In this document: positions 895 to 10,516 of the stretch, in pieces
Layout of the letters: each line of letters starts with the position of its first letter
How positions within the stretch are numbered: position 1 is the stretch's first letter
Origin: a virus
Virus genome (UHGV): UHGV-1718161
Direction: 5' to 3' (one strand)
DNA length: 10,522 nt
Notes under the pieces: generated by a model
The model's database searches: none
What the model was told of the DNA's origin: nothing
Seen by the model: the letters and a program-made list of their open reading frames with translations, nothing else
Made by a program: the position numbers and the translations under genes

Positions 895-1836
895 TCACCC
901 CCTGAATCCTGCCGGGATCTGGCTGTAGTCCACGTTGTCGTAACTGGCTTTGAAGTACGGGTCTTCGCGTTTTTCGGTGTACGTGCTGACGGACGGCGAT
1001 AAGCGCAGGGAAAGCTCATCCCATTTTTCCCGCAGCTTCGACGGGCTGAGCACGTTACGGCACCAGAACGGATCGCGGCTGACGCGGCTGTACATCTCGC
1101 AGATTTGTTTGTGAGTACGACCATCCTGCACACACATCAGGCGAATTTCGTTTGCCCAGGCTGTCCAGTTCGGTTCTTTGGGACGAACCACCTCGCCGTC
1201 ACATTCGGCGGCCTGCTCGTACAGGGCGATGATTTTTTTCCAGAGCCACTGTGCGCAGGTCAAATCATCCTGCGTTCCCCACTGGCGCTTTTTAGGGCTG
1301 AATACAACCGCATTAGGATGGCGAGTTAAAAACTCCTGTTCAGCCGTCTGCGTGTCCGGTTGCGAAGCGTCCGGACGAGAAGTTTTTTTATCTGACGGAT
1401 CATGTTTTGATTTTACTGACGGATCCCCGCCAGATTCTGACGGGTGAAAACCCGCTTTTTTGCCAGATTTCGACGCATCAAATTTTGACGGGTCAGATTT
1501 TGATGCGTCAGATTTTGACGGGTCAGAATCTGACAATTGAGAAAATGCCGCTGCCTGAAGCTTCGCAACGTTAAGCTGATAAACATTCGACGCATTGCGG
1601 TTACCCTGGCGACGCGCCTTACGCGTTAACCAGCCTTCTGCTTCCAGCCGTGCGATAGCCGTTCTGACGGTACTCATCCCCGCGCCAATCTGACGGGCAA
1701 TGGTTTCAATTGATGGCCAGCACACACCTTCGTCATTACTGAAATCAGCCAGGCGGGCCATAATTGCCACGCTGGATAATTTCATGCCTGACGCAGCGCA
1801 ACCATCCCATACATAGCCGGTTAATTTAGTGCTCAT
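895..1836 (-). CDS. phage replication initiation protein (lambda O-like / replisome organizer) with internal origin iterons
   Basis: 313-aa ORF; ATG at 1836-1834 with GAGG upstream. N-terminal winged-HTH-like segment (SSVAIMARLADFSNDEGVCWPSIETIARQIGAGMSTVRTAIARLEAEGWL). Central low-complexity pentapeptide repeats (DPSKS/DASKS) are encoded by 15-bp DNA direct repeats, the arrangement lambda uses for ori inside O. Sits downstream of cro/CII as expected. Confidence 0.8.
   Translation of the reverse strand: MSTKLTGYVWDGCAASGMKLSSVAIMARLADFSNDEGVCWPSIETIARQIGAGMSTVRTAIARLEAEGWLTRKARRQGNRNASNVYQLNVAKLQAAAFSQLSDSDPSKSDASKSDPSKFDASKSGKKAGFHPSESGGDPSVKSKHDPSDKKTSRPDASQPDTQTAEQEFLTRHPNAVVFSPKKRQWGTQDDLTCAQWLWKKIIALYEQAAECDGEVVRPKEPNWTAWANEIRLMCVQDGRTHKQICEMYSRVSRDPFWCRNVLSPSKLREKWDELSLRLSPSVSTYTEKREDPYFKASYDNVDYSQIPAGFRG
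1431..1538. repeat. iteron array (about 6 tandem 15-16-bp direct repeats, consensus CAGATTTTGACGGGT) inside the replication gene; probable phage origin of replication
   Basis: Seen directly: cagattctgacgggtg (1431-1446), ccagatttcgacgcat (1463-1478), caaattttgacgggt (1479-1493), cagattttgatgcgt (1494-1508), cagattttgacgggt (1509-1523), cagaatctgacaatt (1524-1538). Degenerate CTGACGGAT copies lie at about 1391-1400 and 1416-1424. Confidence 0.65.
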
Positions 1837-1845
1837 GACCGACCT

Positions 1846-2184
1846 CTATTTCCCTGAATTTACGACGAAACTGTTCGAGCGGACTGAAGCATTCATGCTC
1901 ATAGCCTTCGCGGAGGTAGATAACCCGTTGTGTTTCCGGCTCCCAACGAATGACTCTGACGGGTACTCCGTAGTGATCTTTGAACCAGCGGTTAACTTGT
2001 CGCAAAGGACTGTCTCCTTTTGCCGGTTAAAATCACCCACAGCCCACTCTGCAAAGCTGTGGGTTACAATTACCCTGCCACCTGGTACATTTACTGCATA
2101 GCAATACTCCACCTTCGCTTTTCCACCCGGTACAGGAAGCGCAATCAGTTGCGAGCGACGGTAGTGTGTTGTTAAACTGTTCAT
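1846..2184 (-). CDS. hypothetical phage early protein (112 aa)
   Basis: ATG at 2184-2182 overlaps the stop of the upstream CII-like gene (ATGA), with GGAGAA 8 nt upstream. No family recognised. The plus-strand ORF 1829..2101 on the same DNA is rejected in its favour. Confidence 0.55.
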
Positions 2185-2732
2185 GCGTTAGTTTCTCCAC
2201 AGTCACGACACGCCACGGCGCCCGGAGCTGCACACTCGCGGGCGTCACTACTTTCTGAAACGCAAAAGATTTTGTAGACCAGAGCTGCATGCTCCTGCAG
2301 CTTCGAAATTGAGAGGTACAGCTCATCGTTAATTGCTGTCTTCTCATGCGGTTCCACTACACCGTCTTCAATTGCTGAACGAATCTGTCTGGAATAACTG
2401 CCGATCTGTTCAATGACTTCCAGCAGACGCTGGTTAATATCGGCATTGTCCACATCCTCGACGTCAGGAAGAGACACAAAGATGCCATTTGCAGACTGCG
2501 CCACAGCGTCAGCAATGAAGTGAGTTCCACCAGCACGTTGCAAAATCATTGCCCATCCCAGCGGGAAAATCTGATCGCCATCGGCACGAAGGCGGTTAAA
2601 TAATGCGTTCTCTGTTACGTCCAGCCAGTCAGCAGCTTCAGCGTAACCCCCCGGCAACGCTGCGATAGTTTTTCTGACAGCTTTCACGTACCACTCAGGC
2701 TGTTTTTCTACTTTCCAGTGATGCTTACCCAC
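2181..2732 (-). CDS. CII-like phage regulatory protein (phage 186 CII / CP76-type), 183 aa
   Basis: ORF track runs to 2843 but that would overlap cro. GTG at 2732-2730 with GAGGAG 6 nt upstream starts 29 nt after the cro stop. Residue pattern (...[21 protein letters not shown]...FIADAVAQ...) resembles the 186-type CII family as I remember it; family assignment is moderate. Confidence 0.6.
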
Positions 2733-2760
2733 GGTTAACTCCTCGTTTCTGTGGTTACGT

Positions 2761-3024
2761 TTACGCAGCTGAACCGCTAACTTTTGAATAGCACTCAGGT
2801 AATCCATCATTTGGATTGGGGTAAATATCAGGACGCAGTTCATGAGGGGTCACGGACCAGTTTCCCAACTCACAAAGTTGTAAAACCCGTTCTGACGGGA
2901 CTTGATTGTTAATTACCCAATTAGCGACGGATTGAGTGGACTTAAAACCAAAGTGACGGGCTACTTCAGATAAAGATTTTCCCGCAGCTTTTACTGCTTT
3001 CTCTGTGTAGTTTTGAGATGACAT
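2761..3024 (-). CDS. cro: Cro-like HTH regulator (YdaS/Cro family)
   Basis: 87-aa ORF divergent from the cI-like gene; ATG at 3024-3022 with GGAGGAG upstream. HTH segment (LSEVARHFGFKSTQSVANWV) and the ...ERVLQLCELGNWSVTPHELRPD... pattern typical of YdaS/Cro-type proteins (recalled). Confidence 0.8.
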   Translation of the reverse strand: MSSQNYTEKAVKAAGKSLSEVARHFGFKSTQSVANWVINNQVPSERVLQLCELGNWSVTPHELRPDIYPNPNDGLPECYSKVSGSAA

Positions 3025-3056
3025 ACCTTTCTCCTCCGAAATTCAGAGGGATGATG

Positions 3057-3092
3057 CTACTTAAAATAGCAAAATGCAACTACTTAAAATAG
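3057..3092. promoter_or_regulatory. OR-like operator/promoter region between divergent cro and cI: two copies of the 13-bp site CTACTTAAAATAG
   Basis: Seen directly: ctacttaaaatag at 3057-3069 and again at 3080-3092 (centres 23 bp apart), in the 70-bp gap between the cro start (3024) and the cI start. Related 13-mers with the same CTA...TAG ends occur at 3893-3905 and 5305-5317. Confidence 0.5.
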
Positions 3093-3094
3093 AA

Positions 3095-3835
3095 ATGACT
3101 AGCGTATGTGATGCGAGTAATCTTCTACCTATGGTAGAAGAACAGAAGTATCCAGATTTCGCCAAGAGACTAAACGAGCTAATGACAAACAAGGGAATTT
3201 CTGTCACCCAACTCAAAAGTCTTGTGGGCGTTACATATGAAATGGCGCGGCGATACACAATCGGCGCTGCGAAGCCTCGTGCCTCTGTCATGAATAAACT
3301 TGCATTGGCTCTGGGGGTATCAGCTTCATATTTAGAATATGGTGTTGGCGAGAGAGAAGGATGTAAGGAAATGGCAAGCATCCCCAATCCAACAAAACCC
3401 GATGTATACAGGATAGAAGTTTTGGATCTTAGCGTTAGCGCAGGACCTGGGACCTATATGCTTTCAGACTATGTTGATGTGCTCTACGCCATTGAGTTCA
3501 CAACAGAGCATGCCCGTTCTCTTTTCGGTAATCGTTCTCAAGATGATATTAAAGTTATGACTGTAAATGGCGACAGCATGTCCCCTACTCTAGTTTCCGG
3601 AGATCGACTGTTTGTCGACATTTCTGTTCGCAACTTCCAAACTGATGGTGTTTACTCTTTCGTTTATGGTAAGACGTTCCACGTTAAACGTCTACAAATG
3701 CAAGGCAACAAACTCGCCGTTCTTTCGGATAATCCAGCCTATGAGAAATGGTACATTGATGAGAAGTCCCAAGATCAACTTTATGTTATGGGCAAAGCAT
3801 TGATACACGAATCAATTAAATACAACCGGCTTTAG
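3095..3835 (+). CDS. cI: cI-type prophage repressor (N-terminal XRE-family HTH, C-terminal LexA-like S24 peptidase domain)
   Basis: HTH (FAKRLNELMTNKGISVTQLKSLVGVTYEMARRY), S24 serine motif (VNGDSMSPTL) and downstream catalytic Lys (FHVKRL). Start is ambiguous: the ORF-track ATG at 3074 lies between the two operator copies, so I prefer ATG 3095 (leaderless-style); ATG 3131 is also possible. Stop TAG 3833-3835. Confidence 0.85.
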   Translation: MTSVCDASNLLPMVEEQKYPDFAKRLNELMTNKGISVTQLKSLVGVTYEMARRYTIGAAKPRASVMNKLALALGVSASYLEYGVGEREGCKEMASIPNPTKPDVYRIEVLDLSVSAGPGTYMLSDYVDVLYAIEFTTEHARSLFGNRSQDDIKVMTVNGDSMSPTLVSGDRLFVDISVRNFQTDGVYSFVYGKTFHVKRLQMQGNKLAVLSDNPAYEKWYIDEKSQDQLYVMGKALIHESIKYNRL

Positions 3836-4006
3836 TTCTTCGTTTAGACTATAGAACTAAAGGTAAAAAAAATAATATTTAGCAAGCAAGTGCTATTACT
3901 AATAGTTGTTTTACTCTCTTATTTTTATTAAACATTATCATTAACAATATAAAATAATTACCCAGCGTAAATTACAATATGCTGGGGGTCGAAAGGATAG
4001 AGAAAC

Positions 4007-5083
4007 ATGACAAAATCAATTTGTTTTTTTAATCATAAAGGTGGGGTAAGTAAAACCACAACAACCTTCAATCTTGGATGGGCACTTGCGGATGAAGGCA
4101 AGAAAGTATTGATGGTTGACCTTGATTCGCAATGTAATCTAACAGGAATGGTTCTTGGCTATGAAAAGATTGATGAGGGTTTAGATTCTTTTTATTCTAG
4201 CAGAGATAACTTAACTCTTGGACCTATTGTAGAATATTTGATTAATGGCGGACAACCTGAAGCATACCTTGAAAAAGAAACGGGAAAATTACACCCTACA
4301 CTGCATGAAAACCTTCTGCTTCTTCCCGGACATTTAGATGTTTCGGACTTAGATTCACAGATAAGTGTTTCTCTAAAAATTGCTGCTGGTATTCCTGCTA
4401 CAAGAAATATACCAGGGAACCTGCCAAAAATATTACAGCTAATCGCCTTGAAGAATAATATTGATTACATTCTTTATGATCTCAGCCCTAATGTTGGAGG
4501 TTTAAATGAAGTAGTTCTCATGTCAAGTGACTATTTTATCGTACCTGTAGCTCCAGACTTTTTTTGCTGGCAAGCAATTCGCTCTCTCTCAAAAAATATA
4601 CCTCGCTGGCACAAAGAATTAGCATTATTTAAAGAAAATAATGATGGTAACTCTTCACAATCAATTAAAAATGCACCGCAGTTTCTAGGTATGATTCAGC
4701 AGAGATACAGGCCGCGTAAAGGAGCACCTGTAAAATCTTTCGAAAAATGGATGGCAGCTATCCGTGATGCTGTTGATTCGATCTTAGTGCCAAATCTAGA
4801 AAAAATTACCTGCATAATTCCACGAGATAAAGTGCAACATGCAATTAACAAAACAACAGTCAGTGGAGATTTATCAGCCTATGATCTTGCGCATATTTCC
4901 GATTTCAACTCATTAATCGCAATAAGCCAACAACTAGCGACACCTGTTTTCTCCATCAGTGATCAGCAAATTCGCGATTCAGGGCAATTTGGGCATGCCT
5001 TAAATACAATGAAATCAAGCAGAGACGCCTTTAACGAACAATTTAAAGGGCTGGCTCAACGAGTTCTAGAACTTACAAAGTAA
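4007..5083 (+). CDS. ParA/MinD-superfamily ATPase with a roughly 120-aa C-terminal extension (358 aa); candidate lysogen-expressed exclusion/defence protein
   Basis: Deviant Walker A NHKGGVSKTT (res 9-18), ParA-type LMVDLDSQCNL, Walker-B-like ILYDLSP. AAGGA/GAGAAA RBS before ATG 4007. Sits in a visibly AT-rich segment directly downstream of cI in the same orientation and is followed by an intrinsic terminator. No ParB-like partner ORF or parS-like repeats nearby. Confidence 0.85.
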   Translation: MTKSICFFNHKGGVSKTTTTFNLGWALADEGKKVLMVDLDSQCNLTGMVLGYEKIDEGLDSFYSSRDNLTLGPIVEYLINGGQPEAYLEKETGKLHPTLHENLLLLPGHLDVSDLDSQISVSLKIAAGIPATRNIPGNLPKILQLIALKNNIDYILYDLSPNVGGLNEVVLMSSDYFIVPVAPDFFCWQAIRSLSKNIPRWHKELALFKENNDGNSSQSIKNAPQFLGMIQQRYRPRKGAPVKSFEKWMAAIRDAVDSILVPNLEKITCIIPRDKVQHAINKTTVSGDLSAYDLAHISDFNSLIAISQQLATPVFSISDQQIRDSGQFGHALNTMKSSRDAFNEQFKGLAQRVLELTK

Positions 5084-5090
5084 TGCATGT

Positions 5091-5127
5091 GCCCGGCCGC
5101 ATAACCGGGCTTTACTCTTCTTTCTCC
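5091..5127 (+). terminator. rho-independent terminator after the ParA-like gene
   Basis: GCCCGG (5091-5096), loop ccgcataa, CCGGGC (5105-5110), followed by a T-rich tract tttactcttctttct. Confidence 0.6.
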
Positions 5128-5268
5128 CTGATTAATCTCATAAAAAACTCCCTCCTCATAATTCACTATGCTCAATACCTACTCCAACTTCGTGCGATAT
5201 TTTCAGTTTACAGCATAGTAAATCAGCAAAAACATTTAACTTTCAATTAATTATAGAAAAATCATAGA

Positions 5269-5326
5269 CAACAACAAATATCTACTTTTTGTTGTTGATT
5301 TTTGCTACTTTAAGTAGCAACATAAT
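5269..5326 (+). promoter_or_regulatory. pL/OL-like regulatory region: two adjacent palindromes plus a -10-like CATAAT
   Basis: Inverted repeat caacaacaaa (5269-5278) / tttgttgttg (5288-5297). Perfect 19-bp palindrome ttgctacttTaagtagcaa (5302-5320) containing the operator-like 13-mer CTACTTTAAGTAG (5305-5317). CATAAT at 5321-5326, TTGATT at 5295-5300 (spacing not ideal). Position mirrors lambda oL/pL after the rex slot. Confidence 0.35.
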
Positions 5327-5404
5327 GTAAGCTATCACGGACAGGCAGGACGCCCACGAAGTAGCCTCCTGGGACATATGAAGTCCAGGATGATTCGTTA
5401 GCAA

Positions 5405-5428
5405 CAAAAAAGCGCCCTACAGGACGCT
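5405..5428 (-). terminator. rho-independent terminator of the minus-strand 173-aa gene
   Basis: On the minus strand: AGCGTCC-TGTA-GGGCGCT (7-bp stem with one G-U pair) followed by TTTTTTGTTGC, about 40 nt after the stop at 5471. Confidence 0.55.
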
Positions 5429-5430
5429 TA

Positions 5431-5443
5431 GCTCTTTAACAAT
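5431..5443 (+). promoter_or_regulatory. boxA-like antitermination motif (GCTCTTTAACAAT), rrn/phage-21-type
   Basis: Plus-strand gcttaGCTCTTTAACAATctggg matches the rrn boxA core TGCTCTTTAACAA and resembles the phage 21 nut boxA as I recall it. Lies about 110 nt downstream of the pL-like palindrome and 2 nt after a hairpin (boxB-before-boxA order, as in rrn leaders). Confidence 0.4.
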
Positions 5444-5470
5444 CTGGGTATCATCCAACCAATGCAAGAT

Positions 5471-5992
5471 TTAAGGAATCCAAGGCGAATTCAGATCTCG
5501 CCCCAACTCACGTAATGATCTTGGTCGTTCGTACATCGGATTTTTTTCCATAAGAAATTTATTTTCACAGTGAAGGCAACGGCTTGTAAGAAAATGAGAA
5601 GTTTTACCTACTGGAAGCGGATGAAGTATCGATTTTATATTTTTGGAATAACAAAGTGGGCACAGATGCACAGTTATTTCTTTTCCACTCACAATTTCAT
5701 TTTTAGAGTAAACAAAAGCACCAGAGTCAAGCTGATCAAGGACATATCCTTCTACCTTGGCACAAAAATCTTCAAACTCTGCAATTTTTGCTTTGAGATG
5801 CATCACCTCTTCATCACGAAGGCGGATCGCATCGCCAAGAGAGAAGCATTCTGCCTGAAGCGTGATTAGTTTGTTCTGGAGTTCAATGGTTGCAGCTTTA
5901 ACTTCTGCATCCGTTTTCGCGTCATTAATAACCTTAGCAAGACCGGCAGTCTCCTTTATAGCGGCCATAGCCGCAGACAGTTCAGCTATCAC
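5471..5992 (-). CDS. hypothetical coiled-coil protein with a C-terminal C4 zinc ribbon (173 aa)
   Basis: N-terminal 80 residues are Ala/Lys/Glu-rich and helical; CPLC (111-114) and CLHC (139-142) form CxxC-x24-CxxC. ORF-track start is a GTG at 5992; the first ATG is at 5968-5966, neither with a strong SD. Own terminator downstream. Antisense plus-strand ORFs (5570..5869, 5862..6056) look like low-complexity shadows. Confidence 0.7.
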   Translation of the reverse strand: MIAELSAAMAAIKETAGLAKVINDAKTDAEVKAATIELQNKLITLQAECFSLGDAIRLRDEEVMHLKAKIAEFEDFCAKVEGYVLDQLDSGAFVYSKNEIVSGKEITVHLCPLCYSKNIKSILHPLPVGKTSHFLTSRCLHCENKFLMEKNPMYERPRSLRELGRDLNSPWIP

Positions 5993-6008
5993 GTTGAATA
6001 CTCAGCTA

Positions 6009-6052
6009 GTTGTTGGGGATATCCAGATTAACCAAATCCTTGTTGTTGGGGA
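6009..6052. repeat. two direct copies of GTTGTTGGGGA flanked by CTAG, in the promoter region of the 173-aa gene
   Basis: gttgttgggga at 6009-6019 (followed by tat) and at 6042-6052 (followed by ata), 33 bp apart; ctag at 6005-6008 and 6057-6060. Confidence 0.45.
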
Positions 6053-6461
6053 ATAACTAGGTCCACCTCGCCTGATGTGGCTAAAAGCAGGCACATAACA
6101 GCTAAGTATTTTCAACCAGAGAGAATCCTTAGCGTTGTGGTGAATGCGGCTCAGCGCACGCGGGTTAAGGTTGAGGCTGACAGTCGACCTTCTGTGGATA
6201 CCCACCCGCCTGGTGTGCAACCTTCGCCAGGCACCGGGAGGCACCCGGCACCACAACTTTATGCTGTGTGTAGTCCTGGCGGTATCAGCTTGTACCCTTG
6301 CTTCCGGCTGGTACCGTCCTTTTTACAAAACAGAGAAGAGTATCACCGGACGACGGGCTCATAACCCAATCCATCCGGGCGGCTGCCACCGCAGGTGTTC
6401 TTCTCTGTTTTGTGGAGAAACCAACCGACCTTGCAGGGTCGATATGATGGGGAGCAGCAAA

Positions 6462-6824
6462 ATGGCTAGCGAACGCAGTACTGATGTGCAGGCATTTATC
6501 GGGGAGCTGGACGGCGGCGTATTTGAAACCAAAATCGGCGCAGTTCTCAGTGAAGTCGCTTCCGGTGTGATGAACACGAAAACCAAAGGTAAGGTCTCGC
6601 TCAACCTGGAAATCGAACCGTTTGATGAGAACCGTGTAAAAATCAAACACAAACTCTCATATGTTCGCCCGACTAACCGCGGGAAAATTTCCGAAGAAGA
6701 CACCACCGAAACGCCGATGTATGTCAATCGCGGTGGTCGCCTGACTATTCTGCAGGAAGACCAGGGACAATTACTGACTCTTGCCGGTGAACCTGACGGA
6801 AAACTCCGCGCAGCAGGTCGTTAA
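6462..6824 (+). CDS. yfdP: hypothetical early-left accessory protein, YfdP-like (120 aa)
   Basis: The ORF-track frame is open from 6144, but the N-terminal 100 aa are R/C/W/P-rich junk typical of GC-rich non-coding DNA. ATG 6462 is preceded by GGAGC. Length and position match the first gene of the yfdP-Q-R-S-T block of E. coli K-12 CPS-53 (recalled from memory). Confidence 0.6.
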   Translation: MASERSTDVQAFIGELDGGVFETKIGAVLSEVASGVMNTKTKGKVSLNLEIEPFDENRVKIKHKLSYVRPTNRGKISEEDTTETPMYVNRGGRLTILQEDQGQLLTLAGEPDGKLRAAGR

Positions 6825-6889
6825 TATCGTTTTTAATAAACTGATTATTTATCTCATCACTGAATATCTTTATATAGTGAGGACTTATT

Positions 6890-7714
6890 ATGTCTCAGAA
6901 CTTAGACGCAACCGCAATTAATCAAATCCATGCCCTTATTTCTGCTCAGGGTGTTAATGAAATTATCAGTAAGATTGGTGCCGATGCTGTGGCATTGCCT
7001 GAGAATTTCCGCATTCATGATCTGGAAAAATTTAATTTAAATCGCTTCCGTTTCCGTGGTGCGCTTTCCACTGCCAGCATCGATGACTTTACCCGTTATT
7101 CTAAAGATCTTGCAGATGAAGGCACCCGCTGCTTTATCGATGCTGATAATATGCGAGCCGTCAGTGTGCTTAACCTGGGTACTATTGATGAACCAGGTCA
7201 CGCAGATAACACCGCCACTCTCAAACTGAAAAAGACAGCACCGTTCTCTGCCCTGTTGTCTGTTAACGGCGAGCGTAACTCCCAGAAGTCACTGGCAGAA
7301 TGGATTGAAGACTGGGCCGACTACCTTGTGGGCTTTGATGCTAATGGTGACGCCATTCAGGCAACAAAAGCGGCTGCGGCGGTCCGTAAAATCACGATTG
7401 AAGCAAACCAGACCGCTGATTTTGAAGACAATGACTTCAGCGGCAAACGCTCTCTGATGGAGTCTGTCGAAGCGAAAACCAAAGACATTATGCCAGTAGC
7501 ATTTGAGTTTAAATGCGTTCCGTTTGAAGGCCTGAAAGAACGTCCGTTTAAATTACGCCTCAGCATTATCACTGGTGATCGCCCTGTACTGGTTCTGCGC
7601 ATTATTCAGCTGGAAGCAGTGCAGGAAGAAATGGCTAACGAATTTCGTGATCTGCTTGTTGAAAAATTCAAAGACAGCAAAGTAGAAACCTTTATTGGTA
7701 CTTTCACCGCCTGA
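6890..7714 (+). CDS. yfdQ: YfdQ-family phage protein (274 aa), function unknown
   Basis: Clean ORF with GAGGA 6 nt before ATG 6890, followed by a hairpin terminator. Length, sequence impression and gene order match YfdQ of K-12 CPS-53 (recalled). Confidence 0.75.
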
Positions 7715-7726
7715 TTTCATTACTGC

Positions 7727-7748
7727 AAATGCCCCTGCGGGGGCATTT
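7727..7748 (+). terminator. stem-loop / weak intrinsic terminator after the yfdQ-like gene
   Basis: AAATGCCCC-tgcg-GGGGCATTT, a perfect 9-bp stem at 7727-7748; the downstream T-tract is short. Confidence 0.4.
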
Positions 7749-7841
7749 ATGGAAACGTAATTAACTCAATAATCGCCTGATGGCGAGGGTTTTCTTTAAC
7801 CAAAATTCAGCGCGGTGCAGCGCATATACGTGGAGAACAAA

Positions 7842-8378
7842 ATGTCATTTATTAAAACTTTTTCCGGGAAGCATTTTTATTATGACAGGATAAATAAAGA
7901 CGACATCGATATTAACGATATCGCGGTTTCCCTTTCAAATATCTGTCGCTTTGCCGGTCATCTTTCGCACTTCTACAGCGTCGCCCAACATGCGGTTCTT
8001 TGCAGCCAGCTGGTGCCGCAGGAATTTGCTTTTGAAGCGTTAATGCATGATGCAACAGAAGCGTATTGCCAGGACATTCCCGCACCACTGAAACGCCTTC
8101 TTCCTGACTATAAACAAATGGAAGAAAAAATAGACGCCGTAATCCGTGAGAAATACGGGTTACCCCCAGTTATGAGTACGCCCGTGAAATATGCCGATCT
8201 CATCATGCTGGCAACCGAACGCCGCGATCTCGGGCTTGATGATGGCTCTTTCTGGCCTGTACTGGAAGGTATCCCGGCAACAGAGATGTTCAACGTGATT
8301 CCACTGGCACCGGGCCATGCCTACGGGATGTTTATGGAACGCTTTAACGAGTTATCGGAGTTACGCAAATGCGCATGA
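7842..8378 (+). CDS. yfdR: HD-domain phosphohydrolase, YfdR-like (178 aa)
   Basis: ORF track starts at GTG 7815, but ATG 7842 has GGAGAA 5 nt upstream and gives 178 aa. HD motif in ...EALMHDATEAY..., upstream His residues in AGHLSHFYSVAQH. Matches my recollection of YfdR. Confidence 0.8.
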   Translation: MSFIKTFSGKHFYYDRINKDDIDINDIAVSLSNICRFAGHLSHFYSVAQHAVLCSQLVPQEFAFEALMHDATEAYCQDIPAPLKRLLPDYKQMEEKIDAVIREKYGLPPVMSTPVKYADLIMLATERRDLGLDDGSFWPVLEGIPATEMFNVIPLAPGHAYGMFMERFNELSELRKCA

Positions 8379-8731
8379 ATGTTTTCGAAATGGAAGGGTT
8401 TCTTCGTGGGAGATGTGTACCGCGAGATCTGAAAGTAAATGAAACAGATGCTGAATACCTGGTGCGTAAATTCGATGCGCTTGAAGCTAAATGTGCAGCA
8501 CAGGAAAACAAAGTAATACCAGTGTCAACTGAACTGCCACCAGCAAATGAAAGTGTTTTGTTATTCGATGCTAACGGAGAAGGCTGGCTAATTGGCTGGC
8601 GTTCTCTCTGGTACACCTGGGGACAAAAAGAAACCGGAGAATGGCAGTGGACATTTCAGGTCGGGGACCTTGAAAACGTCAATATCACTCACTGGGCAGT
8701 AATGCCAAAAGCACCGGAGGCTGGAGCATAA
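8369..8731 (+). CDS. yfdS: DUF551-type prophage protein, YfdS-like (120 aa)
   Basis: ATG 8369 with GGAG 8 nt upstream, overlapping the end of the HD-protein gene. W-rich C-terminal half (GWLIGWRSLWYTWGQKETGEWQW) typical of DUF551 proteins. Length matches YfdS. Confidence 0.7.
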   Translation: MRMNVFEMEGFLRGRCVPRDLKVNETDAEYLVRKFDALEAKCAAQENKVIPVSTELPPANESVLLFDANGEGWLIGWRSLWYTWGQKETGEWQWTFQVGDLENVNITHWAVMPKAPEAGA

Positions 8732-9036
8732 TGACCACTTTTACCGACAAAGAACTGATTAAAGAAATTAAAGAGCGTATCAGCAGCCTTGACGTGCGAG
8801 ACGATATTGAGCGCTGTGCTTATGAAATCGCACTCCTATCTCTGGAAGTAGAACCAGATGAACGCGAAGCTTATGAATTATTCATGGAAAAGCGTTTCGG
8901 TGACTTAGTAGATCGTCGGAGAGCAAAAAACGGCGATAACGAATACATGGCATGGGATATGACTCTCGGTTGGATCGTCTGGCAGCAACGAGCTGGTATC
9001 CATTTTTCAACAATGTCACAGCAAGAGGTGAAATAA
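8731..9036 (+). CDS. yfdT: hypothetical prophage protein, YfdT-like (101 aa)
   Basis: ATG 8731 overlaps the upstream stop (TAATG), with GGAG upstream. Acidic small protein; length and position match YfdT. Confidence 0.65.
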   Translation: MTTFTDKELIKEIKERISSLDVRDDIERCAYEIALLSLEVEPDEREAYELFMEKRFGDLVDRRRAKNGDNEYMAWDMTLGWIVWQQRAGIHFSTMSQQEVK

Positions 9037-9386
9037 TGGAGCCATACAGCCTCACACTCGATGAGGCCTGTCATTTTCTCAAGATATCCAGACCGACTGC
9101 CATTAACTGGATACGCACAGGGCGTCTTCAGGCAACACGCAAAGATCCCACTAAGAATAAATCTCCTTACCTCACAACACGACAAGCCTGCATTGCGGCT
9201 CTTCAGTCTCCGCTGCATACTGTCCAGGTGAGCGCGGGTGATGGCATAACAGAGGAAAGAAAATGTCACTCTTCCGCAGAGGTGAAATATGGTACGCCAG
9301 TTTCACATTGCCGAACGGTAAAAGATTTAAACAGTCTCTTGGAACAAAGGACAAAAGGCAGGCGACAGAACTCCATGACAAGCTAA
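9036..9386 (+). CDS. xis: excisionase (P22 Xis-like, 116 aa)
   Basis: ATG 9036 overlaps the upstream stop (TAATG), with GAGGTG upstream. The ORF-track frame extends upstream to 8952 but coupling favours 9036. Lies immediately upstream of int and overlaps it (9263-9386). Sequence ([38 protein letters not shown]...) matches my memory of P22 Xis. Confidence 0.75.
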
Positions 9387-10426
9387 AGGCTGAAGCATGG
9401 CGGGTCAGCAAACTTGGTGAAATACCTGATATAACGTTCGAGGAAGCGTGTATCAGGTGGCTTGAAGAGAAAGCACATAAAAAATCACTGGACGATGACA
9501 AAAGCCGGATCGGATTCTGGCTTCAACATTTCGCAGGAATGCAACTAAGAGACATTACTGAATCAAAAATTTATTCAGCAATGCAGAAAATGACGAACCG
9601 GCGTCATGAGGAAAACTGGAAACTCAGGACAGAAGCATGCAGAAAAAAAGGGAAACCTGTTCCAGAATACACGCCAAAACCAGCGTCCGTTGCAACGAAG
9701 GCTACGCATCTTTCATTTATAAAAGCCCTACTAAGAGCCGCAGAGCGTGAATGGAAAATGCTGGATAAGGCACCAATTATTAAAGTGCCTCAACCAAAGA
9801 ATAAACGGATCCGCTGGCTGGAGCCCCATGAAGCACAAAGGCTGATTGATGAATGTCCGGAGCCATTAAAGTCTGTTGTTGAATTTGCACTGGCAACAGG
9901 CTTAAGACGCTCGAACATCATCAACCTTGAATGGCAACAAATAGACATGCAGCGCCGGGTGGCATGGATAAACCCGGAAGAGAGTAAATCAAACCGCGCA
10001 ATTGGCGTTGCGCTGAATGATACTGCATGTCGCGTTTTGAAAAAACAAATCGGGAATCATCACCGTTGGGTATTTGTGTACAAGGAAAGCTGTACCAAAC
10101 CAGACGGAACGAAAGCGCCAACAGTAAGGAAGATGCGGTATGACGCAAACACAGCCTGGAAAGCGGCGCTGAGACGGGCTGGTATTGATGATTTCAGATT
10201 TCACGACTTGAGACACACCTGGGCAAGTTGGCTGGTTCAAGCCGGAGTCCCGTTGTCAGTGTTACAGGAAATGGGAGGCTGGGAGTCTATCGAAATGGTT
10301 CGTCGATATGCTCACCTTGCACCTAATCACCTTACCGAACACGCACGGCAAATAGACTCGATCCTGAACCCATCGGTCCCAAATTCGTCCCAGTCAAAAA
10401 ATAAGGAAGGTACTAATGATGTGTAA
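9263..10426 (+). CDS. int: tyrosine-family site-specific integrase (P22 Int-like, 387 aa)
   Basis: GAGGAA RBS before ATG 9263. Catalytic signature: R in ATGLRRSN, H-x-x-R in [11 protein letters not shown], Tyr in VRRYAHL. Near-identical to my memory of P22 integrase, which uses thrW. Ends 14 bp before the tRNA 3' end. Confidence 0.95.
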
Positions 10427-10440
10427 CTTATTGATTTAAA

Positions 10441-10516
10441 TGGTGCCGATAATAGGAGTCGAACCTACGACCTTCGCATTACGAATGCGCTGCTCTACCA
10501 ACTGAGCTATATCGGC
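10441..10516 (-). tRNA. thrW: tRNA-Thr (anticodon CGU), thrW-type; prophage attachment site at its 3' end
   Basis: Reverse complement reads GCCGATATAGCTCAGTTGGTAGAGCAGCGCATTCGTAATGCGAAGGTCGTAGGTTCGACTCCTATTATCGGCACCA. Acceptor stem GCCGATA/TATCGGC, anticodon loop TTCGTAA (CGT), T-loop TTCGACT, encoded CCA. Confidence 0.9.

Follow-up and report, generated by a model that had tools for sequence, protein, structure and literature searches.

What does the five-gene block at positions 6462–9036 do for the phage that carries it, and is such a block new? We addressed both questions in a window of 10,522 nucleotides, the whole stretch analysed here, from UHGV virus genome UHGV-1718161. The block consists of five + strand genes of 120, 274, 178, 120 and 101 amino acids, with positions and lengths exactly as given in the first-pass annotation, which had also proposed that the genes are colinear with yfdP–yfdT of the K-12 prophage CPS-53. 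Gene lengths and order are equal to those of MG1655 yfdP, yfdQ, yfdR, yfdS and yfdT (b2359–b2363), and pairwise comparison with the CPS-53 proteins gave identities of 98, 99, 98, 96 and 95%, respectively, so the possibility that the resemblance would dissolve into low identity falls away. Equal lengths and order together with 95–99% protein identity establish orthology with the K-12 genes and rule out chance.

The five proteins differ in how much can be read from their families and predicted structures. YfdP (6462–6824) belongs to the YfdP family (PF27127; phrog_204), and its AF2 model (pLDDT 81) has a long helix and a three-stranded curved sheet for which the PDB search returned no significant match (best E 0.019, TM ≤0.32); a faint likeness to the NTF2-like fold in the structure search was not significant and was rejected. 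YfdQ (6890–7714) matches Pfam DUF2303 over its full length (PF10065, residues 7–272, E 2e-92, 309.7 bits, cut-off 26.6). In BFVD its AF2 model (pLDDT 74) found no matches beyond further DUF2303 proteins from phages, the PDB search gave a best match of E 0.027 with a TM of about 0.1–0.2 and no structure of known function, and the papers found in a literature search report no function for DUF2303. The spacer that follows yfdQ carries two + strand hairpins (7727–7797; hairpins at 7727–7748 and 7773–7786), the second of which, with the T-run at 7790–7797, is terminator-like in a terminator scan. Next comes yfdR (7842–8378), which encodes an HD-fold phosphohydrolase annotated as a 5′-deoxynucleotidase and has a GGAG 8 nt ahead of its ATG at 7842. 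YfdS (8369–8731; phrog_583, E 1e-82) marginally passes the cut-off for DUF551 in its C-terminal part (PF04448, residues 50–117, 22.2 bits against 22), and YfdT (8731–9036) belongs to phrog_660. In a scan of the five proteins against NCBIfam, the only match was a sub-threshold one to YfbR. From yfdR onwards the reading frames overlap end to start: yfdS overlaps yfdR by 10 nt, the starts of yfdT and xis each share 1 nt with the stop of the preceding gene (yfdS and yfdT, respectively), and xis in turn overlaps int.

The block thus runs into the integration module, as the first-pass annotation had it. The xis gene (9036–9386, + strand) encodes a 116-aa excisionase (HTH_17; phrog_2907, E 1e-50; TIGR01764), and int (9263–10426, + strand) encodes a tyrosine integrase (Phage_integrase, E 6e-48) whose start in RefSeq genomes is at the equivalent of 9308. 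Beyond int, a tRNA-Thr(CGT) on the − strand (10441–10516; ARAGORN and Rfam tRNA) marks the thrW attachment site and the end of the prophage adjoining proA. Because the 10.5-kb window is too short to show whether a prophage is intact, we read the wider context from the closest complete genome, BS90R-A, which is 99.2% identical over the whole window. There the element is a lambdoid prophage of ~44 kb in which the modules for head, tail, lysis, Q, replication and immunity are all complete and two side-tail-fibre fragments are flagged as partial.

We then considered how the block is likely to be transcribed. Its description as early-left is borne out by a putative promoter with operators, pL and OL, at 5278–5326 on the + strand (TTGATT, a 17-nt spacer and CAACAT), which points at the yfd block. 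This region was located through its likeness to pR rather than through the sigma-70 consensus: 46 nt at 5278–5323 repeat the OR/pR region (3051–3096) in inverted orientation, so placed that the promoter would fire on the strand that carries cI, yfd, xis and int. The 19-nt operator pattern occurs in the window only at the OL and OR sites, and none of 200 shuffled sequences gave as many occurrences. The block begins ~1.1 kb downstream of pL, and the gene order of cI, a ParA-like gene, pL/OL, the yfd block, xis and int is the lambdoid early-left layout. A scan with the sigma-70 consensus located no promoter ahead of yfdP, and the sites that it gave were fewer than in shuffled sequence. A search for an N-like antiterminator between 5326 and 6077 yielded no + strand ORF of 40 aa or more and none with a family match, and the sole gene in that interval lies on the opposite strand (phrog_1244). 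Phage SfV has an N-less arrangement too. Two terminator-like hairpins lie between pL and yfdR (6278–6324 and 7773–7797) despite this N-less layout.

The first of these hairpins belongs to a structured leader of ~350 nt upstream of yfdP. Positions 6104–6326 of the + strand match the full-length Rfam model of the STnc100/PasD RNA (RF02076, positions 1–206) with 40.5 bits and E 1.8e-7, although this score is below the gathering score of 47. The minimum free energy of the leader is −98.3 kcal/mol (z = −4.6), and its 3′ end, a 12–13-bp hairpin (6278–6318) followed by TTTTT (6320–6324), looks like an intrinsic terminator. Immediately downstream and just 5′ of yfdP, a perfect 15-bp inverted repeat (6325–6339 and 6399–6413, + strand) encloses 59 nt. 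The STnc100/PasD small RNA family has been described as prophage-borne (bioRxiv 10.64898/2026.05.13.724894). Like that family, the leader has a multi-branched fold that ends in a hairpin and a U-run, but in the window the putative RNA is placed as a 5′ leader within the pL operon. Judged on its sequence, it is best described as resembling STnc100, or as a divergent relative of it. The match to RF02076 is found in SfV and SfIV as well, and the element is absent from K-12. Two weaker matches, a second one to STnc100 in the yfdQ–yfdR spacer (7706–7885; E 0.14, 22.7 bits) and a DicF-like one to the terminator hairpin of the leader (20.5 bits, where the gathering score is 48), were put down to chance or generic hairpin similarity. 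The same region has been read as coding. Because it carries the structured RNA and because homology to K-12 begins ~17 nt before the yfdP ATG, we rejected as coding both an ORF of 226 aa at 6144–6824 (annotated as gp34 in SfIV) and a PGAP ‘frameshifted hypothetical protein’ at 6137–6447.

The block is widely distributed. It is present in 3,298 of 5,426 complete E. coli genomes (~60%) and in 476 phage records, and few accessory modules of E. coli prophages are as common. The functional, serotype-converting Shigella phages SfV (orf28–orf32, xis, int) and SfIV (gp28–gp34) share 98.4–98.6% DNA identity with the window over 6009/6063–9400, a stretch that takes in the leader, the five yfd genes, xis and int, and they have the same thrW-type integration module. 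They differ from the window in carrying gtr O-antigen genes beyond int and in their immunity regions and virion modules, and SfV is without the ParA-like gene and the 173-aa gene that lie between cI and the leader. In SfV, this block next to this xis–int was reported as early as 2002 (Allison 2002). Neither the yfdP–yfdT block nor its adjacency to xis–int is new; both were already known. In Klebsiella and Yersinia prophages, yfdP, yfdQ and yfdR again form a triad downstream of cI with other genes in the slot of yfdS and yfdT. On this comparison YfdP–YfdQ–YfdR forms the conserved core, with YfdS and YfdT as mosaic, exchangeable partners.

Seen from the window, K-12 CPS-53 (KpLE1) is a derivative from which 4.8 kb have been deleted, including cro, cI, pL and the leader. 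The five genes have the same strand and overlaps in both, the yfdN flank is 93% identical, and yfdO is 99% identical to the last 122 aa encoded by rep in the window. CPS-53, however, has no equivalent of window positions ~1604–6444, a stretch that comprises the N-terminal part of rep, cro, cI, the ParA-like gene, the 173-aa gene, pL/OL and the leader. At the other end it has torI and an xis stub, ypdJ, which is a remnant of the first 18 xis codons, where the window has xis–int, and it is sited at argW rather than thrW. The regulator SrsR binds upstream of K-12 yfdP and affects yfdPQ mRNA (PMC9181523). The SrsR boxes are phage replication-origin repeats in the truncated rep that in K-12 are fused ~17 nt upstream of yfdP, whereas in the window the same repeats are 5 kb away from the yfd block. 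The regulatory region of the K-12 yfd genes is an accident of the deletion.

The earlier assignment of YfdR as an HD-domain protein is well founded. It matches PHROG 318, ‘deoxyribonucleoside 5′ monophosphate phosphatase’, with E 3e-110, and among solved structures it aligns with Atu1052 (2gz4), a protein of the HD fold, with E 3e-14. In the latter alignment the VAQH, HDA and AD motif residues coincide, and H50, H69–D70 and D119 fall on the metal-binding residues of 2gz4, so that the H...HD...D motif is present on an HD fold. The Klebsiella and Yersinia homologues (60–64% identical) show no change at these residues, and the window and K-12 proteins differ by four substitutions, K16R, V23D, R92Q and D170E. 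K-12 YfdR bears the RefSeq name 5′-deoxynucleotidase. YfdR has the HD fold and the H...HD...D motif in common with YfbR-type 5′-deoxynucleotidases but is only marginally similar to YfbR, and its reported nucleotide affinity is much lower. Its scores are below the cut-offs for YfbR-like families (PF12917, 25.2 against 25.9 bits; HD_3, 17.5 against 22.5; NCBIfam NF003009, 20.5 against 122), and the comparison with the E. coli YfbR structure (2paq) gave E 0.88. The sub-cut-off YfbR-like and HD_3 scores indicate that it is not a close relative of YfbR, and we classify it, on sequence grounds, as a distant relative rather than a YfbR equivalog. Its closest solved relative, Atu1052, is uncharacterised. 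Among HD-domain 5′-deoxynucleotidases, we take phage T5 Dmp to be a comparison system for YfdR.

Published work on the K-12 proteins points to a different activity. K-12 YfdR, to which the HD protein of the window is 98% identical, binds domain I of DnaA; the binding depends on Phe46, and YfdR competes there with DiaA and DnaB (PMC4776307). This agrees with the suggestion of the first-pass annotation that the HD protein may have a function in host takeover. The minimal multicopy set that inhibits initiation at oriC is yfdQ and yfdR with either yfdS or yfdT (Noguchi & Katayama 2016, PMC4776307), yfdP being dispensable for the block (PMC4776307), and this view of the yfd genes was restated in 2025 (eLife, PMC12122000). 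From the published K-12 activities, early shut-off of host chromosome initiation follows as the likely role in the phage. In a lysogen, the repressor would keep the block silent. Upon induction or infection the block would be transcribed early together with xis–int, and YfdR, if it behaves as its K-12 counterpart, would occupy domain I of DnaA on the Phe46 surface, where DiaA and DnaB bind too. With YfdQ and one of YfdS and YfdT as partners, it could then stop initiation at oriC, as the 95–99% identity to the K-12 proteins suggests. Lambda P is known to interfere with DnaA in a comparable way, no later than the step of helicase loading; P, however, binds domain III of DnaA and is the phage helicase loader, whereas YfdR is an HD-fold hydrolase. 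The domain-I binders DiaA, Dps and Bacillus subtilis SirA likewise act on the initiator by protein–protein interference. Neither they nor lambda P are related to YfdR in sequence, and YfdR, unlike all of them, needs YfdQ and YfdS or YfdT in cells. Taken as a whole, we think it probable that the block is an ordinary pL-driven, early-left accessory module of lambdoid prophages of the SfV/CPS-53 type with an early role in shutting off initiation at oriC.

The effect on DnaA was observed with multicopy expression only, deletion of yfdQRST left replication unaffected, and the authors themselves admit that it may be an over-production artefact (PMC4776307). We also count against an initiation-block role that the published tests were made outside phage development, on a K-12 YfdR that differs at four residues, and that the predicted YfdQ and YfdP structures offer no mechanistic clue. 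The two terminator-like hairpins on the way from pL, in a layout with no N-like gene, weigh against it as well, since they may limit how far pL transcripts extend into yfdR.

Should the binding to DnaA be a by-product of over-production, YfdR could instead be mainly an enzyme, a 5′-deoxynucleotidase that reshapes the dNMP/dNTP pool during lytic growth. Phage T5 Dmp, a pre-early 5′-deoxyribonucleotidase, provides a parallel. An enzymatic function would fit both the naming of the family as a deoxyribonucleoside 5′-monophosphate phosphatase or 5′-deoxynucleotidase in PHROG 318 and RefSeq and the intact motif, since conservation of the catalytic residues across genera suggests selection on catalysis. 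We nevertheless consider this explanation rather unlikely, given the Pfam YfbR-like and HD_3 scores just under their cut-offs, the low nucleotide affinity attributed to K-12 YfdR (Zimmerman 2008, as cited in PMC4776307) and the fact that a lone phosphatase leaves the need for YfdQ and YfdS or YfdT in the initiation phenotype unexplained.

The block might alternatively serve the lysogen, in which low-level expression would confer tolerance to oxidative and alkylation stress. Deletion of yfdQ or yfdS in K-12 raises sensitivity to H2O2 or MMS according to second-hand citations of Wang 2010 and Rooney 2009, and both the action of SrsR upstream of yfdP and the retention of the block in so many E. 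coli genomes could be read in the same way. However, the SrsR boxes were brought next to K-12 yfdP by the deletion, and since the block of the window is preceded by a promoter under repressor control and by a leader with a terminator, its expression in a lysogen is expected to be low; a benefit of this kind is improbable. We hold it to be very improbable that the block or one of its members, such as the HD hydrolase or the DUF2303 protein, counters bacterial anti-phage defence. Only circumstantial features favour that idea, namely the position in an early-expressed accessory region, the mosaic gene content downstream of yfdR and the wide occurrence in temperate phages, whereas searches of Pfam, PHROGs, NCBIfam, PADLOC and PDB/BFVD structures revealed no similarity to a characterised anti-defence protein, and the papers found on these genes report no such role. 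The PADLOC scan of the five proteins gave no matches, its models being of defence rather than anti-defence systems.

Within the reading that we prefer, early shut-off of initiation at oriC, a more specific version is possible but doubtful: that YfdP, YfdQ and YfdR form a dedicated early system for shutting off host replication that is released at pL and gated by the STnc100-like leader. The leader could work as a small RNA; alternatively, with the N protein absent, it could be an RNA-based read-through (antitermination) element. The action of the triad on DnaA domain I would stop initiation at oriC and might free DnaB for the phage origin, the repeats of which sit inside the rep gene at 1400–1533.

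The K-12 experiments used a copy of the yfd genes severed from the promoter and leader that natively precede it. The contribution of the window is context: the module in an undeleted, repressor-controlled setting. A prophage such as this one is thus better suited than CPS-53 to testing for host-replication shut-off during phage growth. If the dedicated shut-off system exists, E. coli prophages with the block, of which there are many, would represent a widespread class of DnaA-targeting takeover systems.

Open reading frames of the window were compared with the annotated record of Escherichia coli K-12 MG1655, in which the cryptic prophage CPS-53 carries yfdP, yfdQ, yfdR, yfdS and yfdT (363, 825, 537, 363 and 306 nt). 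The five plus-strand genes yfdP (6462-6824, 120 aa), yfdQ (6890-7714, 274 aa), yfdR (7842-8378, 178 aa), yfdS (8369-8731, 120 aa) and yfdT (8731-9036, 101 aa) have the same lengths, order and overlaps, confirming the colinearity proposed by the first-pass annotation. Pairwise alignments of YfdP, YfdQ, YfdR, YfdS and YfdT with their K-12 counterparts gave 98, 99, 98, 96 and 95% identity, so that the low identity that would have spoken against this assignment was not found (range 95-99%). The identity of the block is thus nearly certain.

This block has been described before and is extremely common. Using 6462-9036 as a megablast query, we found it in 3298 of 5426 complete E. coli genomes, 1942 of which hold at least 80% of it. 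Blastn with 6000-9400 matched 476 phage records from Escherichia, Salmonella, Shigella and Klebsiella, including many Stx-converting phages. The Shigella serotype-converting phages SfIV and SfV are 98.6% and 98.4% identical, respectively, across the leader, the five genes, xis and int, the SfV counterparts being orf32-orf28, xis and int. The genomes closest to the window, BS90R-A and EC93 (99.1-99.2% over the full 10.5 kb), carry it in a lambdoid prophage of about 44 kb that looks complete: modules for terminase, portal, capsid, tail, J, lysis, Q, replication and immunity are present, and two side-tail-fibre fragments carry a partial flag. The block had been described as lying next to xis-int in an intact prophage rather than in a remnant. 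The adjacency and the apparent completeness of the relatives stand, but the situation is not new, because SfIV and SfV carry the same arrangement.

The block is followed by the excisionase gene xis (9036-9386, +; HTH_17; phrog_2907, E 1e-50; TIGR01764), a tyrosine integrase gene, int, ending at 10426, and tRNA-Thr(CGT) at 10441-10516. As proA lies 3' of this tRNA in the matching genomes, the attachment site is assigned to thrW. Successive genes overlap at yfdR/yfdS (10 nt), yfdS/yfdT (1 nt), yfdT/xis (1 nt) and xis/int, which suggests that translation from yfdR onward may be coupled to that of the excision and integration functions. The yfdQ-yfdR spacer contains a terminator-like hairpin at 7773-7797, and in the K-12 literature yfdPQ is an operon apart from yfdRST. 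A strong GC hairpin without a U-run, AAATGCCCC-TGCG-GGGGCATTT (7727-7748), directly follows the yfdQ stop codon, 5' of the terminator-like hairpin.

A repeat search identified 5278-5323 as an inverted copy of the OR/pR region (3051-3096, -). Alignment gives TTGCAT-TTTGCTATTTTAAGTAG-CATCAT for pR and TTGATT-TTTGCTACTTTAAGTAG-CAACAT for the second site, and a 17-nt palindromic operator, TGCTAYTTWAAGTAGCA, lies within the promoter spacer of both. A 19-nt operator pattern occurs only at these two regions, and none of 200 shuffled sequences contained as many matches. The region 5278-5326 (+) is therefore taken to be the expected OL/pL, a putative promoter facing yfdPQRST, xis and int; this orientation bears out the description of the block as early-left. 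The left early promoter would lie 1.4 kb beyond cI, past an inserted ParA-like gene. No N-like antiterminator gene was found 3' of pL (5326-6460), and the path from pL to yfdR, xis and int includes terminator-like hairpins at 6278-6324 and 7773-7797. By analogy with the put RNAs of phage HK022, RNA-based read-through is a possibility.

Two further genes flank this promoter. The 173-aa gene at 5471-5992 (-; phrog_1244, unknown function) would be traversed in antisense by the predicted pL transcript, which would collide with its transcription. Its product combines an N-terminal coiled coil with a CxxC...CxxC motif at the C-terminus, and the gene has its own terminator (5429-5410). Between cI and pL, the position at which lambda carries rexAB, lies a gene for a 358-aa ParA/MinD-type ATPase (4007-5083, +), which sits in a low-GC island (33-39% GC) and has its own terminator (5091-5110). 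SfV, SfIV and strain CREC-629 lack it. The similarity of its product to the PADLOC candidate system PDC-M28B is weak and confined to the N-terminal P-loop. The gene may be an accessory one that is expressed in the lysogen and related to partition or defence.

Upstream of yfdP, about 6100-6450 forms a strongly structured leader (fold z-score -4.6). The Rfam model for the small RNA STnc100 (RF02076) matches 6104-6326 (+) over its full length, scoring 40.5 bits, under its gathering score of 47 (E 1.8e-7), and a terminal 12-13-bp hairpin followed by TTTTT (6278-6324) resembles an intrinsic terminator. STnc100, like the related PasD RNAs, is a known small RNA of prophages. Counterparts of the leader occur in SfV (4051-4266) and SfIV (4096-4318); K-12 has none. 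In genome pipelines the stretch appears either as a 'frameshifted hypothetical protein' or as part of a yfdP lengthened to 226 codons; because it is strongly structured and STnc100-like, we regard both as artefacts. Between the leader terminator and yfdP is a perfect 15-bp inverted repeat (6325-6339/6399-6413, 59 nt enclosed), and 3' of it a hairpin (6424-6443) directly precedes the yfdP ribosome-binding site. Just 5' of the leader, CTWGTTGTTGGGGA occurs twice, 33 nt apart (6006-6019 and 6039-6052); SfIV has this direct repeat and SfV does not, and it could mark a module boundary or bind a protein. In the early-right region of SfV (1226-1414, -), Rfam models exceed their gathering scores for a C4 antisense RNA (82 bits) and for an IsrK-like RNA (64 bits); neither RNA is present in the equivalent region of the window.

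K-12 retains only part of this setting. Its yfdO corresponds to the last 122 residues of the 313-aa replication protein in the window (rep, 895-1836, -) at 99% identity, yfdN is 93% identical between the two, and ypdJ is a stub of xis comprising its first 18 codons. The K-12 yfdO-yfdP 'intergenic' region (9240-9612 of the K-12 segment compared) is collinear with the interior of rep to about 1603, after which the match resumes at about 6445, 17 nt upstream of the yfdP start codon. CPS-53 is therefore a deletion derivative without the equivalent of about 1604-6444 (about 4.8 kb), a stretch that in the window holds the 5' part of rep, cro and cI, the genes for the ParA-like and 173-aa proteins, pL/OL and the leader. 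Within rep, about eight repeats resembling TCAGATTTTGA recur at 15-nt spacing (1400-1533, +); by analogy with the origin repeats of lambda, which sit inside its O gene, they probably belong to a replication origin. The eleven-base 'SrsR boxes' footprinted 5' of K-12 yfdP, in the yfdO/yfdP spacer (PMC9181523), are these same 11-mers, which points to a phage-origin remnant as the source of that regulatory site. K-12 regulation and lysogen phenotypes would thus transfer less well to complete prophages.

Prophages of Klebsiella and Yersinia ruckeri carry YfdP-family, DUF2303 and YfdR-like genes in the same order, 3' of a repressor gene (YfdQ 58-60% and YfdR 60-64% identical, HD motif retained). 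The genes that follow differ, encoding a ParB-like HTH protein in one and an Rv2179c-like exonuclease in the other. From this comparison, the module is a P-Q-R core with a variable tail, in agreement with the published interchangeability of YfdS and YfdT (PMC4776307). YfdP is a member of PF27127, a YfdP family defined only recently, YfdQ matches DUF2303 over its full length (E 2e-92), YfdR is an HD-fold protein, YfdS has a marginal C-terminal match to DUF551, a portable domain also found in Ea22 variants (PMC10834534), and YfdT matches only PHROGs of unknown function. AlphaFold models of YfdQ (pLDDT 74) and YfdP (pLDDT 81) have no significant solved-structure match; in BFVD, the YfdQ model matches only other phage DUF2303 proteins, some from actinophages.

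The explanation we favour, and consider probable as a whole, is that the block would be under repressor control and expressed early, its best-supported activity being inhibition of host initiation by YfdR acting on DnaA domain I, aided by YfdQ and YfdS/T. K-12 yfdQRST was isolated as a multicopy suppressor of over-initiation (Noguchi & Katayama 2016, PMC4776307). [quoted passage not shown] The authors propose a lambda P-like ancestral role and point to SfV homologs, and later work describes YfdR as a prophage-encoded rival of DnaB for DnaA domain I (PMC12122000). YfdQ has also been reported to play a part in controlling another phage. Deletion of yfdQRST did not show an effect in normal growth, and its authors concede a possible over-production artefact (PMC4776307). 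Our assignment of the biological role is tentative.

YfdR might instead serve mainly to reshape nucleotide pools as a dNMP phosphatase. Its PHROG assignment is 318 ('deoxyribonucleoside 5' monophosphate phosphatase', E 3e-110), its RefSeq name is 5'-deoxynucleotidase, and its nearest solved relative, the uncharacterised HD protein Atu1052 (2gz4, E 3e-14), aligns at the H, HD and D motif residues, bearing out the HD-domain call. Its similarity to YfbR is marginal (PF12917, 25.2 versus a cut-off of 25.9; NF003009, 20.5 versus 122; 2paq, E 0.88), and Zimmerman 2008, as summarised in PMC4776307, describes it as structurally YfbR-like with much lower nucleotide affinity. We consider this reading unlikely. 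That the block favours the lysogen through stress tolerance, a reading suggested by the reported H2O2 and MMS sensitivity of K-12 deletions, seems quite improbable, the K-12 lysogen being the deletion derivative. An anti-defence function of the block or one member is very improbable.

The first-pass observation is thus confirmed and its interpretation supported overall. What the window adds is the native setting of the block: a predicted OL/pL, an N-less left arm, a structured leader, spacer hairpins and gene overlaps. As a conjecture that we hold doubtful, the P-Q-R triad may be a widespread, pL-gated, DnaA-targeting device for host shut-off in N-less lambdoid phages, its expression governed by an STnc100-like leader.
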